DNA of 64,000 bases from NCBI GenBank assembly GCA_944332295.1, contig CALVJR010000002.1:72589-136588 (forward strand). The letters run 5' to 3'. The notes under the pieces were generated by a model. The model was not told the origin of the DNA, made no database searches, and saw only the letters and a program-made list of their open reading frames with translations. The stretch is from an uncultured Bacilli bacterium. GTDB taxonomy: Bacteria; Bacillota_I; Bacilli_A; RF39; UBA660. How positions within the stretch are numbered: position 1 is the stretch's first letter; each line of letters starts with the position of its first letter. The translations under genes and the position numbers were made by a program. Below, piece after piece: positions 45,251 through 56,912 of the stretch.

Positions 45251-45339
45251 AATCCTCTTTTTTTCATATAATGAATTAAGAAAAAAATAAAAATATTATT
45301 GAAATTTTATATGAGCTTTGATATAATCATAAGTGCAAT

Positions 45340-45413
45340 GGGGCTTTAGCCAAGTGGTAAGGCGTGGGTCTGCAACACCCTGATCACCGGTTCAAATCCG
45401 GTAGGCCCCTCCA
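45340..45413 (+). tRNA. tRNA-Cys (anticodon GCA)
   Basis: Cloverleaf, CTGCAAC loop, discriminator U, CCA. Confidence 0.85.
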
Positions 45414-45414
45414 T

Positions 45415-45489
45415 GCGGATGTAGTTTAGTGGTTAGAATACGGCCTTGCCAAGGCTGTGACGGGGATTCGATTTCCCTCATCCGCTCCA
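45415..45489 (+). tRNA. tRNA-Gly (anticodon GCC)
   Basis: TTGCCAA loop, CCA; 1-nt spacer after tRNA-Cys. Confidence 0.85.
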
Positions 45490-45528
45490 TAAGGTAAAAT
45501 CGTCGCACCAATGTGACGTTAATGATTA

Positions 45529-45556
45529 AATCAATCTGAAAAGATTGATTTTTTTG
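45529..45556 (+). terminator. rho-independent terminator after tRNA-Cys/tRNA-Gly
   Basis: AATCAATCT-GAAA-AGATTGATT hairpin plus T6. Confidence 0.7.
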
Positions 45557-45587
45557 TGCGTTATTGCAAAGAAAGGTGTGATGTGAT

Positions 45588-45860
45588 ATGATTAAAATAA
45601 TTAAAAAGAAAATCAATATGAGTGATGAACTCAAAACCAAAATTAATTGGTCTTGCAAATTTAATAACAGACCCTACCAGATTATTGAGGGTCACCTAAG
45701 AATTGTGGAACATACAAATCTAGCGTATGTTGAGCCACACAAAGTAATTATTGGAGAAACACTATATTTATTCTTCAATGAACAAAAACATTTTTATATT
45801 GGGAATTTAAAGAAGAAAATCCCTATCGCTGATTTATCAGAGTACATAGCAAGGCATTAA
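45588..45860 (+). CDS. small protein A (90 aa); paralogue of 50527..50817, and each precedes a large serine recombinase
   Basis: Shared block ...GHL-I-(E/D)(H/N)TN(L/I)-(Y/I)-EPH(K/R)(V/I)I... between the two small proteins. Confidence 0.5.
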   Translation: MIKIIKKKINMSDELKTKINWSCKFNNRPYQIIEGHLRIVEHTNLAYVEPHKVIIGETLYLFFNEQKHFYIGNLKKKIPIADLSEYIARH

Positions 45861-45928
45861 TTAATTGAGAGTTTATATACTCCCACAATATTGGTTTATT
45901 TTGTCGTGTAAATAAATTAATATGTTAG

Positions 45929-47833
<1,905 letters not shown>

Positions 47834-47836
47834 ATT

Positions 47837-48190
47837 ATGGAATTAAAATATACAAAAACTGGTGATTATGAATTACCAAATTTAACTTTAAATGATAATA
47901 AAAAAGGAACAATTAATAAGTATGGAATGTTAAGGCTTGATTATTTAAAGCAACATAAAAAAGCACTTTATATCACACTTTTAATGAAAGATGAACTTAC
48001 TAATCATCTTGTTTCAGTAAGTAAAGATGCAGAAAATTTATTAAATAATATGATGGAAAGTTATAAAAAATCAGATGAAAAACTATCTGAAAAAAGTAAA
48101 GAAATTAATCAACTTGAATGGGTAAAATTGATGAATAATTATAAAAATATGGCTGAGGAAATAATTTTAAAGGAGTTAATATATGTATGA
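47837..48190 (+). CDS. TnpV-like transposon protein (117 aa)
   Basis: Tightly coupled downstream of the recombinase as in Tn4451. Pattern YTKTGDYELPNL...KYGMLRLDYLKQH...LEWVKLMNN resembles the TnpV family as I recall it. Confidence 0.45.
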   Translation: MELKYTKTGDYELPNLTLNDNKKGTINKYGMLRLDYLKQHKKALYITLLMKDELTNHLVSVSKDAENLLNNMMESYKKSDEKLSEKSKEINQLEWVKLMNNYKNMAEEIILKELIYV

Positions 48191-48285
48191 TGTTGTCTAT
48201 AAGCAAGCACTGAATTTGTACTCCCGTACAAATTCTATTATGGGAATTCCCATACCCTTAAATTTTAGAAAGGAGACCTTAAATT

Positions 48286-48657
48286 ATGAGAATAAGAAAT
48301 AATAAAGTTAATGTATTTTTAAGTGATGATGAAAAATTTATTTTAAAAAGAGATTCTTCAAAACTAAAATTATCTCAATCTGAATATATTAGAAATTTAA
48401 TTATAGGATATGAGATTAAAATTCCAGAAGTCAAAGAAGAACAAAAGTCTAAAAAAGATGAATATATTATAGAGAATATTGCCAAATCATTAGAAGAAAA
48501 TATTGAATGCTTAATTAAAGTAAAAAATAAATTTCATTATCTTGGATATTTTGAAGATGAACGAGCAATCGGAGCTAAAATTGAATATTTAAAATTGCAA
48601 AATAGCACATTAAAAAAATATATTCCTATTGAAAATGATAAAGACAATGCCAACTAA
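48286..48657 (+). CDS. ribbon-helix-helix protein (MobC-like)
   Basis: N-terminal motif VFLSDDEKFILKRDSSKLKLSQSEYIRNLI, typical of MobC-type relaxosome accessory proteins. Confidence 0.4.
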   Translation: MRIRNNKVNVFLSDDEKFILKRDSSKLKLSQSEYIRNLIIGYEIKIPEVKEEQKSKKDEYIIENIAKSLEENIECLIKVKNKFHYLGYFEDERAIGAKIEYLKLQNSTLKKYIPIENDKDNAN

Positions 48658-50270
48658 ACATTGTCTTTTAATAATAATTTATGATTATCAAAGTGATAAA
48701 ACTTATTACATATTTCATTTATTTTTTCATTATGTGTAGCAATTATTAATGTTTTATCTTTAAAGTGTTTTAATATAAAATCCACTACAATTTCTTCCGT
48801 ATGTTTATCTAAATTAGATGTAGGTTCATCTAAAATATAAACATCTTTTCCCATTAGATAACTTCTTAAAATATTTATTCTTCTTTTTTGTCCAGTTGAA
48901 AGCTTTAATCCTTTTTCGCCAACTATTGTATATATTCCATCTTCAAACATTAGAATTTCATCTAGTTCTAATTCTTTTAAATAATTTATTATTTTTTCAT
49001 CTGAAATATTCTTATCTAAACATAAATTTTCTTTTATAGTCATATTAAATAATTCTATTTCTTGACTTACAACACCTATGTCAAGTCTATAATCTCTCAT
49101 ATTATTTTCATCTATTTTAGCCTGTCCTTTATAGATAGTTATATTTCCTAAAATCAAGTTTATTATAGATGTTTTGCCTTGACCAGATTTCCCAGTTATT
49201 GAAATTTTATCTTTGTTTTTTATTATCATATTATCAACTTTAATATTAAAATTAGATTCTTTATATTTTAAATCTATATTTGATAATTCTATTTTATTAA
49301 AATTAGTTAATAACTCTCTTTCATCCAATTTACTAAATAATTGAACACATTTTTTCTTTAATGCTTTTAATTCAAAACCACTAACTATTGTTCCAGACAA
49401 TTCATCAAATATAAATCCCATTTCTAAATAAATAGATATATAAAATGTAATTATTCCTAGTGTATCAATTCCATTAGATAAATCTACAACTGCTTTTATA
49501 ATTGCTAATGCAAAAGGTATCACTATTAAAATATTTCTTATAAGTTCTTCTAATGAATAGCATTTAACATACTTATTTTGCTTTTTATAACATTCTTTTC
49601 CTTCTTTTGATACAATTTTTTCAAAATATTTGTTATCGTTCAATGCTTTGACAGTTCTAATATTACTAATAAAATCTTGATATACAGATGAATACTCATA
49701 TTCTTTATCATACAATTCTTCAACGTGTTTATTAGATTTTTTTAATATATATACACTTATCATAACACATAAAATACTTAATACTAATGATACTAAGAAT
49801 AAAATTTTCGATTGTTGAAATACAGTAAAAAAGAAAAATCCAAAAGATAATAATATTCCTATGTATTCTGCACTAAGAATCTTTTTAACTAATTCAGATA
49901 TCTTTTCTATTATATTTTCTAAATATCCCGTTTGATACTTAGATAAAGTTTCTACTGGCACTTTTGTTAATTTCTTGTAATATTCTAAATATTGAACATT
50001 AGAATAATCATATAAATAATTATCCATAACTTTTCTTTCTAAATATAATACAAAACATCTAACTGATTTAGAAGCAATAAATATTGAAGCAACAATTATT
50101 GCTTTTTCAACAGTAAAAGGCATTGTTAAAAAAAGAGCAAAAGTATAAGGAATAACGTAGTAAATAAAATCTAAAAAAGCCTCAATAAACAAGCATAAAA
50201 AAACTTTTTTTCTGTCTAATAATCCAAATATAAAATTAATGTTGTTTTTTTTCATCTTAATCCTCACCAC
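48654..50270 (-). CDS. ABC exporter, fused permease (6 TM) plus ATPase, 538 aa
   Basis: Walker A GKSGQGKTS, signature LSTGQKRR, Walker B ILDEPTSNLD; TM domain N-terminal. Confidence 0.75.
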   Translation of the reverse strand: MVRIKMKKNNINFIFGLLDRKKVFLCLFIEAFLDFIYYVIPYTFALFLTMPFTVEKAIIVASIFIASKSVRCFVLYLERKVMDNYLYDYSNVQYLEYYKKLTKVPVETLSKYQTGYLENIIEKISELVKKILSAEYIGILLSFGFFFFTVFQQSKILFLVSLVLSILCVMISVYILKKSNKHVEELYDKEYEYSSVYQDFISNIRTVKALNDNKYFEKIVSKEGKECYKKQNKYVKCYSLEELIRNILIVIPFALAIIKAVVDLSNGIDTLGIITFYISIYLEMGFIFDELSGTIVSGFELKALKKKCVQLFSKLDERELLTNFNKIELSNIDLKYKESNFNIKVDNMIIKNKDKISITGKSGQGKTSIINLILGNITIYKGQAKIDENNMRDYRLDIGVVSQEIELFNMTIKENLCLDKNISDEKIINYLKELELDEILMFEDGIYTIVGEKGLKLSTGQKRRINILRSYLMGKDVYILDEPTSNLDKHTEEIVVDFILKHFKDKTLIIATHNEKINEICNKFYHFDNHKLLLKDNV

Positions 50271-50526
50271 ATAGTATTTTCTTACAAGTAAATTATACTA
50301 TATTTTGACATTTTTTTCTATACTACCTTGAAAATATCTAGGAAAATGATATAATTGATTCATCAGAGAGATTTAATCAATCTTGGGAGTATAATTTTCT
50401 CATACGTGTATAGTTTAGGCTCCATTGAGGTTGAAAGTCGCACATTTGGCGATTTCTATATAAAGAAAAGTTCATAGTATTTGATACTATGGACTTTTTT
50501 CATGCTCAAAGGAGGGATGAATATTT

Positions 50527-50817
50527 ATGAAAACAGTCATAACAGAATTACCTTTTCCTTGTGAAATTAAAAACAAAATTAAAATGAAAGTTAGTACAGG
50601 AAATTTGGAAATTAATTTTTTGTCGGGACATCTTATCAAAATCGATAATACCAATATCAGTATAGAAGAACCGCATCGAATTATTGTAAAGAAAGATAAT
50701 ATGATATTACTTGCTATGCTTTATAATAATGAAGATAAAATATATTTACCAAATAATAATATCATCATTACTTTAACCAAATACATTTCCATTCTAAACT
50801 CTATAAATAAAATTTAA
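50527..50817 (+). CDS. small protein B (96 aa), paralogue of 45588..45860
   Basis: See small protein A; RBS AAAGGAGGGATGAATATTT ATG. Confidence 0.5.
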   Translation: MKTVITELPFPCEIKNKIKMKVSTGNLEINFLSGHLIKIDNTNISIEEPHRIIVKKDNMILLAMLYNNEDKIYLPNNNIIITLTKYISILNSINKI

Positions 50818-50987
50818 AAAAATTTTTGGGGGTATATTTTTATTTAATAGTTTAATTAATGGTTTATTTTAACCATTTGCTTAATAATTTAAACATTTTT
50901 GTAAAATTCAGTTCGACTATTTTTCCTACTAAAATTCCTATAAAATTCCCTACTGACTTTTCGATTGTCAAGTTTTATAATTAAGTA

Positions 50988-51007
50988 AGGTAGACAAATT
51001 TCTACCT
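50988..51007. repeat. perfect palindrome AGGTAGA-CAAATT-TCTACCT upstream of recombinase 2
   Basis: 7-bp arms. Same AGGT...ACCT arm ends as the 45932-45955 palindrome before recombinase 1, but not followed by a T run. Confidence 0.6.
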
Positions 51008-51055
51008 AATAATGATTAGGACTTAGTCTTTATATAATTTTTAGTTATTGTTTGA

Positions 51056-51087
51056 AACACAAGGAAAATTACTCCCTTGTGTTTTTT
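51056..51087 (+). terminator. hairpin AACACAAGG...CCTTGTGTT plus T6 immediately upstream of recombinase 2
   Basis: Read directly. Confidence 0.55.
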
Positions 51088-51115
51088 CGTGTGCAAAGGA
51101 GTTGGTAAAAAATAA

Positions 51116-52858
<1,743 letters not shown>

Positions 52859-53056
52859 AACTATCTCAATTTTTTATTTTAAAAGGGGGTTATATATTGA
52901 ATGAATTTTTTAAATATCTACTACCACAGTTATTAAGTTATTTTGGTAGTGAAAAACTAGTTTTAGAGGACTTTATACCTAAAGCAATAGAAAATCATTA
53001 CGGAAATCTATTGCTTCCGTATGAGCCAAATAATAAAGAAAATATGGAGAATAAAG

Positions 53057-53299
53057 ATGATGAAATTAACAAATGAAGATATTAATAAAAATCATGTGGA
53101 TACTATTTCTCAATATTATGTATTAGATTATCTAAAAAGGCAGCTTAACATTAACGAATTTGAAATTTATCTATATGACAAAGATACAATAAAAGTCATT
53201 GATAAAAACCTAGAAACTGGGTACTTTAAATATAATAGTTGCACCAAAAATATAGACTTTTTTGAGAATTTGGAAAATGAGCGAGAAATGGAAATTTAA
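53057..53299 (+). CDS. hypothetical small protein (81 aa from the ATG after GGAGA)
   Basis: ORF with RBS; the upstream in-frame extension is unlikely. Confidence 0.3.
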   Translation: MMKLTNEDINKNHVDTISQYYVLDYLKRQLNINEFEIYLYDKDTIKVIDKNLETGYFKYNSCTKNIDFFENLENEREMEI

Positions 53300-53410
53300 A
53301 CACTTTTTTATAAAAAGGTAATACCTCTAAAGACTTATAAAATAAGGGAAAATCGAAGGTGTGTATTACCAAATGTGTCAAATTGTGGTTATTTCGGCAA
53401 GTGCCGAAAA

Positions 53411-53480
53411 ATTTTTGCACCAAAAAAACGGCGAAAAATCCTTATAAAATAAGGGTTTTCGTTTTTTTTTGGTGCAATTC
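53411..53480. repeat. about 65-bp hyphenated palindrome between convergent genes (arms GCACCAAAAAAACG / CGTTTTTTTTTGGTGC around a near-palindromic CTTATAAAATAAGGG core), within a region of reiterated TTGCACCAAAAAAA-type and CTTATAAAATAAGGG motifs (53330-53600)
   Basis: Read directly. CTTATAAAATAAGGG occurs at 53334-53348 and 53441-53455; GGTGCAA/TGCACC copies at 53417, 53471, 53524 and 53567. Confidence 0.6.
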
Positions 53481-53631
53481 CCATATCCTGTTGTATTTTT
53501 TTTAGGTATAAAAATGAGTTTTTTTACCAAAAAAGCATATGCGATCAAAAAAATATTGGTGCAACATTTTTTCGATTTTTTGTGAAGTAAAAAACAACTC
53601 CTGTACTAGCAAGTTGTTTGCATTTTAATAT

Positions 53632-53850
53632 TTATAACTTTTGTAAATTTCCATAATTACTAGATATAAAAACATTAAAAACTTTATGTTCGTATTTTTT
53701 CTGCAAATCAGTAATATCAAGAATTATTTTTTTTAATGTTTTTATGTTTTTAGTAAGAATGATAAAATTAATTATTTCGTTTTCTTCTATGACATTATAT
53801 GAAATGACTGTATCTTCATCGAGAAAAATATTATTATTAGTTTTATTCAT
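53632..53850 (-). CDS. hypothetical small protein (72 aa)
   Basis: ORF whose start overlaps the stop of an upstream reading frame (ATGAATAA). Confidence 0.35.
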   Translation of the reverse strand: MNKTNNNIFLDEDTVISYNVIEENEIINFIILTKNIKTLKKIILDITDLQKKYEHKVFNVFISSNYGNLQKL

Positions 53851-54146
53851 ATTGTATGCTCATCAATTCTTCTAAAGATTTACATTCTTCAAGATATTTT
53901 CTAAATGTATCATCATATTTTTTCTCAAGTTGTAGTTTCTCATTTTCCCATTCCCTATGAGATTTACGAAATAATTTACAAGGCTCATTATCAATTAACA
54001 CATCATATTGTTCTCTAATGATTTTACATTGATTATCATAGAAATTAGCAAAAGTTAAAGTACTATCTCTTAAATGAATGAATTGTATAGTAAATAGTTT
54101 ATCTATTATTACTTCATTAGATAGTATTTCATTTTTTCTTTTTCAT
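53843..54146 (-). pseudogene. about 100-codon ORF interrupted by a frameshift in an A6 (T6 on the plus strand, 54132-54137) homopolymer; translationally coupled to 53632..53850
   Basis: ATG AAA AAG AAA AAA TGA in frame 0. Removing one A fuses it to a 95-codon open frame ending in TAA that overlaps the downstream ATG. Confidence 0.3.
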
Positions 54147-54289
54147 ATAGACCACCTTTTGTTTTTGTGAATAATTTTTCCAATTCTGCAAACCCTATTC
54201 CTAGTACTAATAGGAATTTCAAACCAAAAAAATATTTTTAGTATATCATTGACTTATGATTTTAAACAAAGAATTGGAGGTGTGTAGAT

Positions 54290-54502
54290 ATGCAACTTAA
54301 GGCGACTGATTATAAACCAAAAGAAATCATTAAATTCATTCGTGAATGGACAGAATTAACTCAAAATGATTTTGCAAAATCTATACACCGTAGTAGAAAG
54401 ACTATTGAAGGTTATGAATATGGAACAATTAATGTTAGTCTTGCTACACTTTTAAAAATTTGTAAGACACATGATATAGAAATTATTATTCGCAAGAAAT
54501 AG
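54290..54502 (+). CDS. XRE-family HTH transcriptional regulator (70 aa)
   Basis: HTH_3 pattern (IREWTELTQNDFAKSIHRSRKTIEGYEYG). Confidence 0.6.
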   Translation: MQLKATDYKPKEIIKFIREWTELTQNDFAKSIHRSRKTIEGYEYGTINVSLATLLKICKTHDIEIIIRKK

Positions 54503-54660
54503 TTTCTTTTTTTTATTTTCACTTCATTTACTTCTTTATACTTAATGTACTATCTATTGTTGTCATAATGATTATATCATATTTTTGCTCATATACACCG
54601 AAGAAAATTAAAAATAGCCGAATTTAATGTCATTATTTTTATTGAGGATAGGTGAAAATA

Positions 54661-55107
54661 ATGAATCAAAGGTTAGAAGATTTAAGAGACGAAAAGAACT
54701 TATTGAAAAAACAAGTAGCAAAAGACATTGGTGTGGTGGAATCGGTTTATTCAGAATGGGAAAATGGAAAGCTATCTATTCCAACTAAAAGAATATTTCA
54801 ATTAGCAAACTATTTTGAGGTAAATATTGATTATATGTTAGGCATTTCAAATAATAGAACACATATCAAATCTAATTGTAATATTGATATTCATGTAGTA
54901 GCAAGCAGAATTAAGGAAATAAGAAAATCACTCAAACTAACTATGAGAGAACTAGCAAGTAAGTTTAATACATCTTCTTCTGCTATTAGTAATTATGAAA
55001 ACGAAAAATATTTAATATTAAGTCCATTTTTAGTTGAATTATGCAAATCTACTAACTATTCTATTGACTGGGTACTTGGTAGATCTAATAAAAAGTATCG
55101 CGATTAA
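54661..55107 (+). CDS. XRE-family regulator with two tandem HTH domains
   Basis: Two HTH_3-like repeats (LLKKQVAKDIGVVESVYSEWENG... and LTMRELASKFNTSSSAISNYENEK...); the start is set at the ATG after GGTGA. Confidence 0.55.
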   Translation: MNQRLEDLRDEKNLLKKQVAKDIGVVESVYSEWENGKLSIPTKRIFQLANYFEVNIDYMLGISNNRTHIKSNCNIDIHVVASRIKEIRKSLKLTMRELASKFNTSSSAISNYENEKYLILSPFLVELCKSTNYSIDWVLGRSNKKYRD

Positions 55108-55201
55108 TCGTTAATTTATCTAAAATCAAAGTCAAAATCAAAAAACATTGTTATTAAATTAATGTTATGGTATAATAAAACTCGATTGAGGGGGAATTTG
55201 C

Positions 55202-55741
55202 ATGGAAAAAACGCGAAGAAACAGAATTATAGTTATGTCTATTATGACTTACTATGCACGACAAATATTTGATGAAACCAAAGGATATGAGTTTAGAAAA
55301 TCACCATTAAAGGACCAAGATTTAGATAAAAAAATTTATGTTTATTCTGCAAAAGAAGATAAAGCTCTAATTGGATACATGAAAGTTTCAGAAATTTTAA
55401 AGGGTAATACTACACAAATTTTAAAATCTACCGGTTATGATGTGAGACCAGATGGTCATGAAATCGTTGATTATTATGGAAAAGACTTTCAAAGATGTTG
55501 TGCTTTAAAATTATATGACGTAACTGAATTTGAAGAATATCTTACATTAAGAGATATGCGAAAAATTGATCCTAATATTAATCTACCACAATATTATTCC
55601 TATATTTATGAAAGTAATCCTTTATATGATGTTATTAGAGAATGGGATGAAGCATTTAGTTTAGATGGAAATTTGTGTAAAAATCCAACTAAACAGAAAC
55701 AATTGATTTTACAAAGAGGTATAGAAAGAAGGAGAAAATAA
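55202..55741 (+). CDS. ASCH/PUA-like domain protein (179 aa)
   Basis: N-terminal block SIMTYYARQIFDETKGYEFRK resembles the ASCH beta-barrel start (SIKP-YAE-I--G-K-YEFRR). Confidence 0.4.
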   Translation: MEKTRRNRIIVMSIMTYYARQIFDETKGYEFRKSPLKDQDLDKKIYVYSAKEDKALIGYMKVSEILKGNTTQILKSTGYDVRPDGHEIVDYYGKDFQRCCALKLYDVTEFEEYLTLRDMRKIDPNINLPQYYSYIYESNPLYDVIREWDEAFSLDGNLCKNPTKQKQLILQRGIERRRK

Positions 55742-55742
55742 A

Positions 55743-56087
55743 ATGATTCATGAAATGAAATTACAACCAGAATATTACAATTTTATATTGAATGGTACAA
55801 AAAGAATTGAAATAAGATTATATGATGAAAAAAGACAAAGTATAAAATTAGGAGATACAATTAAATTTTTAAAGGAGCCTGAATTATCAGAATCTTTTAA
55901 TGCAAAAGTTATAGGTTTATTAAGATATAATTCTTTCAAAGATATGTTTAAAGATTTTGATATTTCTATTTTGTCTGATAAATCAATGACAAAAGAAGAA
56001 TTAATTAAAGTGCTAGAACAATTTTATACTAAAGAAAAACAGGAACAATATGGTGTATTAGGTATAAGAATAGAATTGATAGATTAA
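55743..56087 (+). CDS. ASCH-domain protein (114 aa)
   Basis: MKLQPEYYNFILNGTKRIEIRLYDEKRQ is a classic ASCH N-terminus. Confidence 0.55.
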   Translation: MIHEMKLQPEYYNFILNGTKRIEIRLYDEKRQSIKLGDTIKFLKEPELSESFNAKVIGLLRYNSFKDMFKDFDISILSDKSMTKEELIKVLEQFYTKEKQEQYGVLGIRIELID

Positions 56088-56169
56088 CTGATAGTCTATC
56101 TTTTTATTATTGTCAAAATAACAAAAAAGTGTTAGAATAAACAACATATTGTGAGGGAGGCTTGGTTTT

Positions 56170-56727
56170 ATGGTTTATATTGAAAGTTTAAAAAGTTATA
56201 TTGGAAAAATAAGTGATGAAGAATTTGCAGATTTAGCTAAAAGAATCTATGATATTACTGATTTTATTTGTGAAGATTATCCAAAACATAAAGAATGGTA
56301 TTTTCATAAACAACTACCTAGAATTTTTACACCAAGTGGCGAGATTTTGTTTGCAAGATCAAATGAAGATGATAACACTATATTGGCAATGTCATGCTTA
56401 AAGAAAGATGAAGAAGAAAAGAAGATTTGTACTTTATATGTGTCAGATCAATGTAGAGGTCAACATTTAGGGACAAGAATGGTGGAAGCTTCTATGAAAT
56501 TTTTAGAAACTACAAAACCACTAATTACTTTGGCAGATTATAAATTACCTATGTTCCAACCAATAATAGATAAATATGGATGGGAATTAACTGAAATTGT
56601 TGAAGGATTATATAATGATAGAGCTAAAGAACTATGTTTTAATGGAACACTTACAAAACAAGCTAACATGGATAAACAAGGACCGTCTTTAGTAAAAAAA
56701 CTTAAAGATGATAATTCAAATACTTAA
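56170..56727 (+). CDS. GNAT-fold acetyltransferase-like protein
   Basis: Motif-A-like CRGQHLGTRMVEA within a 185-aa protein of GNAT size. Confidence 0.45.
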   Translation: MVYIESLKSYIGKISDEEFADLAKRIYDITDFICEDYPKHKEWYFHKQLPRIFTPSGEILFARSNEDDNTILAMSCLKKDEEEKKICTLYVSDQCRGQHLGTRMVEASMKFLETTKPLITLADYKLPMFQPIIDKYGWELTEIVEGLYNDRAKELCFNGTLTKQANMDKQGPSLVKKLKDDNSNT

Positions 56728-56912
56728 AAATGTTGTTGTAATAAAAAAATATATACGGTATAATTAATACATCAAATACGAATGAACTTTTTACTAAAGT
56801 GTGCGTAACCCCTTTAGTAAACGCTCCATAAGAGCAATTAAAACTCATACTGTTTGGTATGAGTTTTTTATAATGCATTTTTATTGCATTTTTAAGTGCA
56901 ATTGTAGTTTAG

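Follow-up and report, generated by a model that had tools for sequence, protein, structure and literature searches.

Large serine recombinases (LSRs) are sought-after tools in genome engineering. An element that both integrates and excises by means of an LSR usually needs a second protein, and the small recombination directionality factors (RDFs) TP901-1 Orf7 and SPbeta SprB are examples of such partners of large serine integrases. In Tn4451, a joint promoter is formed on circularisation of the element. The recombinase of this transposon needs no accessory protein, and no RDF has yet been proposed for an IME with a serine recombinase (PMC5704250). RDFs act by binding the DBD2/coiled-coil junction; the known ones share neither sequence, fold, motif nor gene position, which makes the directionality factors of LSRs hard to find (PMC12286644). 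The ssrA islands of Dehalococcoides are located at the 3' end of the tmRNA gene, are arranged in tandem arrays bounded by short direct repeats, and some of them have no integration module (PMC3146451).

We analysed a stretch of 64,000 nucleotides from an uncultured Bacilli bacterium (hereafter the window), in which a tRNA-Gly gene is followed by two islands in tandem, termed the A-island and the B-island (Table 1). This organisation follows from comparison with two other states of the locus. In contigs L013-L016, which are 99.9% identical to the window, the sequence runs from 45490 directly to 50419, so that the B-island is the sole island present; relative to these contigs the window contains a 4,935-bp insertion flanked by GCTCCAT, which includes gene A together with its upstream 97 nt, and does not include gene B. 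A search for the pattern in which the tRNA-Gly end is followed directly by the sequence after the third GCTCCAT (56823) identified an empty site in two further contigs (L102 and L103), where 45493 is joined to 56822 and neither A nor B is present. In the A-island the first gene is A, and in the B-island it is B. The attachment site is the 3' CCA end of tRNA-Gly. The GCTCCAT repeat is found at all three junctions (45484, 50419 and 56823) and, judging from the sequence, the crossover is located somewhere within it.

Table 1. Features of the tRNA-Gly locus and its two tandem islands (positions are those of the window).
Feature	Position	Strand	Details
tRNA operon promoter	45299-45327		TTGAAA-17-TATAAT (promoter scan)
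tRNA-Cys and tRNA-Gly	45340-45489	+	ARAGORN, Rfam; tRNA-Gly 45415-45489, ending 98 nt before A
Left junction of the array, GCTCCAT	45484-45490	+	From strain comparisons
A-island	45491-50425		Boundaries from strain comparison
A-island left end	45491-45587	+	Stem-loop 45501-45518, terminator 45528-45557, ribosome-binding site of A
Small protein A	45588-45860	+	90 aa; first gene of the A-island
Hairpin and T6 between A and LSR1	45931-45960	+	dG -10.8 kcal/mol, z -2.6
LSR1	45995-47833	+	612 aa; sole recombinase of the A-island
A-island cargo	47837-50270		TnpV (47837-48190, +), NikA-like RHH (48286-48657, +), ABC transporter (48654-50270, -)
A-island right end	50291-50425	+	Outward promoter 50328-50355 (TTGAAA-16-TATAAT), GCTCCAT 50419-50425
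B-island	50426-56829		Boundaries from strain comparison
B-island left end	50426-50526	+	Stem-loop 50435-50455, terminator 50464-50500, ribosome-binding site of B
Small protein B	50527-50817	+	96 aa; first gene of the B-island
Hairpin and T6 just 5' of LSR2	51054-51087	+	dG -13.0 kcal/mol, z -3.3
LSR2	51116-52858	+	580 aa large serine recombinase; sole recombinase of the B-island
B-island cargo	52897-56727		Small ORFs, two HTH proteins, 179-aa protein, ASCH protein, acetyltransferase
B-island right end	56736-56829	+	Outward promoter 56736-56764 (TTGTAA-17-TATAAT), GCTCCAT 56823-56829
Native tRNA-operon terminator	56840-56867		After the B-island right end

The right ends of both islands carry near-consensus promoters, which face outwards and are placed approximately 60 nt before the junction. 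Transcription from such a promoter would enter the following left end, small gene and LSR gene if the island is circular or part of a tandem array; with only one integrated copy it meets the native tRNA terminator. An exact search of viral contigs for the predicted circular junctions of both islands gave no match. The right-end block of the A-island (50291-50428), for which no match was found in Rfam, also delimits other islands on their right side, at 84-86% identity (L001, 10647-10784 and 13533-13640; L005, 4231-4382), and a copy of the A-type left end lies directly beside it in L003-L005. Some of the islands bounded by this block contain neither a small gene nor an LSR gene. The distribution of these blocks looks like that of arrays which include cis-mobilisable remnants. 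A different kind of rearrangement was observed in the B-type cargo: the block encoding the 179-aa protein, the ASCH protein and the acetyltransferase (55113-56701) is inverted in L004 (289-1900) and in L105-L112, beside a right end (56750-56830) which keeps its orientation. A search for inverted repeats around the inverted block revealed chance-level matches only.

Both small genes were found where the initial annotation had placed them and with the sizes given there (90 and 96 aa), and pairwise alignment supported its view that the two products are paralogous (BLASTP, E=3e-9, 28% identity over 64 aa). The conserved core that it described was recovered as GHLxI..TN(L/I)..EPH(K/R)(V/I)I, within which G35, T43, N44 and P50 are nearly invariant among 40 divergent members of the family. 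It had also been stated that the family could not be named, and the databases agree with this: A, B and the 40 divergent relatives gave no match in Pfam, NCBIfam or PHROGs, and no match for the family was found among PDB sequences. AlphaFold2 predicted the same topology for both proteins (b1-a1-b2..b8-a2), with a pLDDT of 95.0 and a pTM of 0.82 for A (40-sequence alignment) and a pLDDT of 87.7 for B. The two models had no match at E<=1e-3 in Foldseek searches of PDB and BFVD; thus, neither the sequence searches (Pfam, NCBIfam, PHROG, PDB) nor Foldseek revealed a known Xis, HTH or RHH family or fold in A or B. As known RDFs are themselves without a common fold or motif, the lack of a family match is no evidence against a function as a recombinase cofactor.

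The family is large. Clustering at 90% gave 546 relatives for A and 156 for B, and a third subfamily, here named C-type, comprises 4,427 clusters at 90% identity (one subfamily search). The joint profile yielded 590 family clusters at 50% identity, 231 of which were below E=1e-10. The A, B and C subfamilies are mutually 22-40% identical. The median dN/dS of A is 0.10 (51 comparisons), which indicates that this gene is under purifying selection. A tblastn search with A against plasmid and phage collections produced no match.

The initial annotation had reported an LSR gene just downstream of each small gene, which is correct: LSR1 begins 134 nt after A, and LSR2 298 nt after B. Both recombinases, which are 39% identical to each other, contain the Resolvase (PF00239) and Recombinase (PF07508) domains with scores above the cut-offs, the Zn_ribbon_recom domain (PF13408) scoring just below the curated cut-off in both, and roughly 150-190 residues extend beyond their coiled-coil region. 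The hairpins described between the small gene and the LSR gene are real at both sites, and each is followed by T6; a simple terminator scan missed the two of them, probably because their loops exceed its 8-nt limit. Downstream of LSR1 the cargo begins with a gene identified as TnpV (PF14198, E=4e-32), a component confined to A-type islands. Mob_Pre relaxases are encoded in related islands.

The two islands of the window belong to a widespread family of mobile islands of 5-7 kb, which are inserted directly after tRNA CCA ends and pile up in tandem, and which represent an abundant type in gut Bacillota. A literature search for this small-protein family and for this type of gut Bacillota island found no description of either. 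Their common layout starts at the tRNA-CCA with a stem-loop 10-14 nt further on and a strong terminator; the small gene then precedes a hairpin and the LSR gene, and cargo of variable content separates the latter from a right end that bears an outward promoter. We carried out a census of 119 sequences (the window and fetched loci), which were scanned with the family profile, an LSR profile and ARAGORN. The expected recurrence of the small gene beside LSR genes in other genomes was confirmed, since in 86 of the 94 informative copies (near-full-length small genes with at least 700 nt downstream) an LSR gene starts within 900 nt downstream on the same strand, in a sample which is biased towards A-type loci (80 loci came from one search seeded with A-like sequences). 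The pairing holds also for B-type and C-type genes and for three distant representatives, including P0340 and P0309. The small gene and the LSR gene are the sole genes common to all island subtypes, which differ in their cargo.

A tRNA gene is present on the same strand within 260 nt upstream of 63 out of 100 small genes, and several of those without a nearby tRNA belong to inner islands of tandem arrays. Together with its LSR, B (or a relative with 66% identity) is found in five other chromosomal contexts, in all of which the homology to the window starts at 50419-50425, directly after a tRNA gene (Gly, Phe or Leu). The A-type islands follow tRNA-Gly in most genomes. In L037 (6001) the target is tRNA-Thr, yet A and the LSR are both 97% identical to their counterparts in the window. 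Together with tRNA-Phe (L017), tRNA-Leu (L018), tRNA-His (L114, L116) and tRNA-Pro (L113), six tRNA species serve as targets, and every junction lies between CCA and T, either where a tRNA gene ends or at the corresponding junction within a tandem array. From these comparisons, what the recombinase recognises seems to be shared by tRNA 3' ends in general and not confined to one gene.

All 13 divergent left ends which were folded individually (among them the two of the window and those of L003, L004, L017, L034, L055, L066, L113, L114 and L116) contain a stem-loop of 6-8 bp located 10-14 nt after the CCA. The stems differ (CGTCGCA/TGTGACG, GCTCGAA/TTCGAGC, CTCACAC/GTGTGAG, CCTAC/GTAGG and others), with a loose left-arm consensus CTCG(C/A)AC. 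The stem-loop could belong to attP, stand in for a tRNA trailer or serve as a binding site for the small protein.

Another observation concerned the recombinase gene itself. In two unrelated genomes (L011 and L012) an LSR2-type gene is split after approximately codon 157 (the equivalent of 51585). In L011 (11046-19540) the gene is interrupted by an insertion of ~8.5 kb in the opposite orientation, with its own 572-aa LSR and a Mob_Pre relaxase; at the same break in L012 there is a 566-aa LSR, also in the opposite orientation. Judging from their organisation, these look like cases of a second LSR element targeting the recombinase gene of the first.

What, then, might be the function of the small protein? 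The best explanation, which we hold tentatively and at somewhat below an even chance, is that it is a candidate recombinase cofactor, either a directionality factor or an obligate partner of the LSR; A and B would then each be the first gene of a two-gene recombination module composed of the small protein and the LSR. We prefer this reading because the small gene and the LSR gene are the sole constant genes of the islands and elements with LSRs usually need a second protein. The initial annotation had argued more generally that serine integrases need a separately encoded directionality factor, and this is not universal: the non-phage LSRs TnpX and CcrAB work without an RDF. According to the proposed mechanism, the small protein would bind the neighbouring LSR and control recombination. 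It might favour excision (attL x attR) in the manner of a recombination directionality factor or, alternatively, act as an obligate partner in both directions, as CcrA does for CcrB. In the integrated state it would be expressed by read-through from the tRNA operon past two terminators; in a circular island, or in an island located behind another, expression would start from the outward promoter of a right end.

As is the case for RDFs and their integrases, A and B are each encoded within the same element as the cognate LSR (Table 1). The divergence of the small proteins is correlated with that of the LSRs (Spearman 0.73), and this correlation possibly reflects linkage alone. The small gene is constantly placed upstream of the LSR gene and co-oriented with it, in the integrated and in the circular form alike. 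With the same arrangement in both forms, a factor acting in excision only would be produced also when integration is needed, and a classical RDF therefore fits this layout poorly; in our analysis, an obligate partner acting in both directions, of the kind seen in CcrA/CcrB or in the proposed DsiA/DsiB pair (PMC3146451), would fit it better. The C-terminal extensions of LSR1 and LSR2 likewise count against a classical RDF, given that such extensions have been linked to LSRs without a predictable RDF (Shin et al., PMC12286644).

Some of the observations that count against a cofactor also favour a role unrelated to recombination, e.g. maintaining the circle, excluding rival islands or affecting the host, with the left-end site providing transcription from the tRNA operon. 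We consider this alternative rather unlikely, although genes that take advantage of host transcription are typically found where the small gene lies, directly 3' of a strong tRNA promoter; against this, a strong terminator separates the tRNA genes from the small gene. The small protein is also more conserved than the recombinase: among the A-type islands, the small proteins are 80-99% identical and their LSR partners 41-97%. Moreover, intact A genes persist under low dN/dS in islands devoid of an LSR, and in the distant member L113 the next gene encodes no recognisable LSR domains, though this contig is cut. Opposed to such an unrelated role are the free variation of the cargo around the constant pair of small gene and LSR gene, and the fixed distance between the small gene and the LSR start (110-300 nt across the subfamilies, ~600 nt in B-like islands).

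The copies without a recombinase were of special importance, as the initial annotation had considered that homologues occurring independently of recombinases would speak against the proposed association. Of the eight LSR-less copies counted in the census, five were inspected, and each of them looks secondary. Homology extends ~42 nt into the LSR gene in L031, L065 and L096; in L042 the sequence jumps from the start of the LSR gene to the end of the RHH gene; and L001 has lost exactly LSR1-TnpV, the segment between two AGAAAGGAGA ribosome-binding sites, in a clean deletion. L005-L010 and L082 have the RHH gene fused to the first 23 codons of the LSR gene, L005 being, like L042, a deletion scar. 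None of the copies inspected points to a homologue independent of recombinases. In L067, an A-type small protein is paired with a C-type LSR, a mismatch which also counts against the cofactor reading. The hybrid looks like the product of a crossover within the conserved 5' part of the LSR gene, and it may be a dead recombinant that arose in a tandem array. Four public gene calls (P0357, P0377, P0281 and P0334) are chimeras, in which the small protein is joined to N-terminal or internal segments of an LSR. These chimeras and L067 are signs that the small gene often undergoes deletion or recombination with the conserved 5' part of the LSR gene and with islands nearby.

It is also possible, if distinctly unlikely, that the small protein regulates expression of the LSR by acting on DNA or RNA signals of the left end or of the hairpin preceding the LSR gene, whether by repression, by antitermination or at the level of translation. 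Each small gene is indeed bracketed by two terminator-like hairpins. The hairpin preceding LSR1 is almost invariant in A-type islands and is kept also in copies without a recombinase (e.g. L001). It forms part of a spacer (45931-45975, compared with the same region in ~50 loci) which contains GGTGTC-N10-GACACC followed by GGTGCC, three GGTG(T/C)C elements in all, and which is almost invariant among A-type islands, where it is conserved more than the LSR itself. Given these elements, the spacer could serve as an operator in addition to being a terminator. The left-end stem-loops, with their fixed distance and differing stems, would suit a cognate binding site, and the small protein co-varies with the contiguous left-end and intergenic DNA even in the L067 hybrid. 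On the other hand, no HTH, RHH, AbrB or known RNA-binding fold or family was detected in the small proteins, the hairpins of the A-island and the B-island have no common sequence motif, and folds of the junction transcripts show no alternative structure competing with the terminators. A related idea, that RNA of the right end acts in the circle as an antiterminator of the left-end terminator, was rejected, as the minimum-energy folds keep the terminator in every context.

Finally, the reading of A and B as chromosomal target genes or chance ORFs, beside which LSR elements insert, might be suggested by the presence of A without a nearby recombinase in L001 and by the small-gene copies which flank an LSR segment on both sides in L003 and L004, but it is refuted, with a negligible residual probability, because the indel distinguishing the window from L013 takes in A with its upstream region, the empty site has neither gene, B travels with its LSR to unrelated chromosomal contexts, tandem islands account for the flanking copies, a deletion between two similar ribosome-binding sites is a better explanation of the L001 arrangement, and purifying selection together with the confident predicted folds excludes chance ORFs. 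A variant in which A is the target and LSR1-TnpV a 2.3-kb mini-element inserted behind it was ruled out by the strain without the A-island and by the empty site.

Whichever of these readings applies, a large unannotated protein family is tied by its position to LSRs. If the small protein is a cofactor, as we tentatively prefer, pairs of LSR and cofactor would be readable directly from sequence, and the 7-bp repeat at the CCA end of the tRNA gene already delimits their att sites. If it is not, there would still be useful outcomes, namely the island family itself, its tandem accretion, and near-identical recombinases which target several tRNA species. A more far-reaching possibility, which we regard as doubtful, is that the A/B family constitutes a new, strictly syntenic class of LSR cofactors, the first for non-phage integrative mobilisable islands. 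In concert with the conserved left-end stem-loop, the small protein might then make the direction of recombination at the CCA ends of tRNAs depend on read-through from the tRNA operon or on circularisation, and thousands of natural pairs of LSR and cofactor would be recognisable from their position.

In comparison with known systems, A and B resemble the phage-type RDFs (TP901-1 Orf7, SPbeta SprB and phiRv1 Xis) in being small proteins encoded on the same element as the LSR, Orf7 and SprB being set beside them by description only. They differ in that known RDFs show inconsistent synteny with the integrase gene, whereas the small genes described here almost always precede the LSR gene directly and in the same orientation. 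The islands are also not phages. The CcrA/CcrB pair of SCCmec and the proposed DsiA/DsiB pair of the Dehalococcoides ssrA islands (PMC3146451) likewise consist of two adjacent, co-oriented genes at the left edge of the element. However, a partner of the CcrA/DsiA type is itself a serine recombinase (a small one in the case of DsiA), while A and B have no resolvase domain. The module described here points into the island, in contrast to Dehalococcoides and SCCmec, where it is directed towards attL. With the ssrA islands our islands have in common an LSR, the location at the 3' end of a tRNA or tRNA-like gene, a short direct repeat, tandem arrays and, in other loci, members without a recombinase; the Dehalococcoides target is tmRNA, whereas the islands of this study use the CCA end of several ordinary tRNAs.

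The similarity to Tn4451 and Tn4453 lies in the TnpV homologue encoded downstream of the recombinase in the A-island. The recombinase itself is different: LSR1 matches the N-terminal domain of TnpX (2mhc) with E=5e-4 and the TP901-1 integrase with E=4e-21, and being far closer to the latter it is not a TnpX-type enzyme. Tn4451 and Tn4453 have low target specificity, whereas the islands are site-specific at tRNA ends. A right-end promoter feeding the recombination genes after circularisation is similar in Tn4451, with the difference that in our islands the promoter is complete within the right end. To conclude, these islands are closest to the ssrA islands of Dehalococcoides in architecture and to Tn4451-type elements in gene content (TnpV, Mob_Pre), and are members of neither group.
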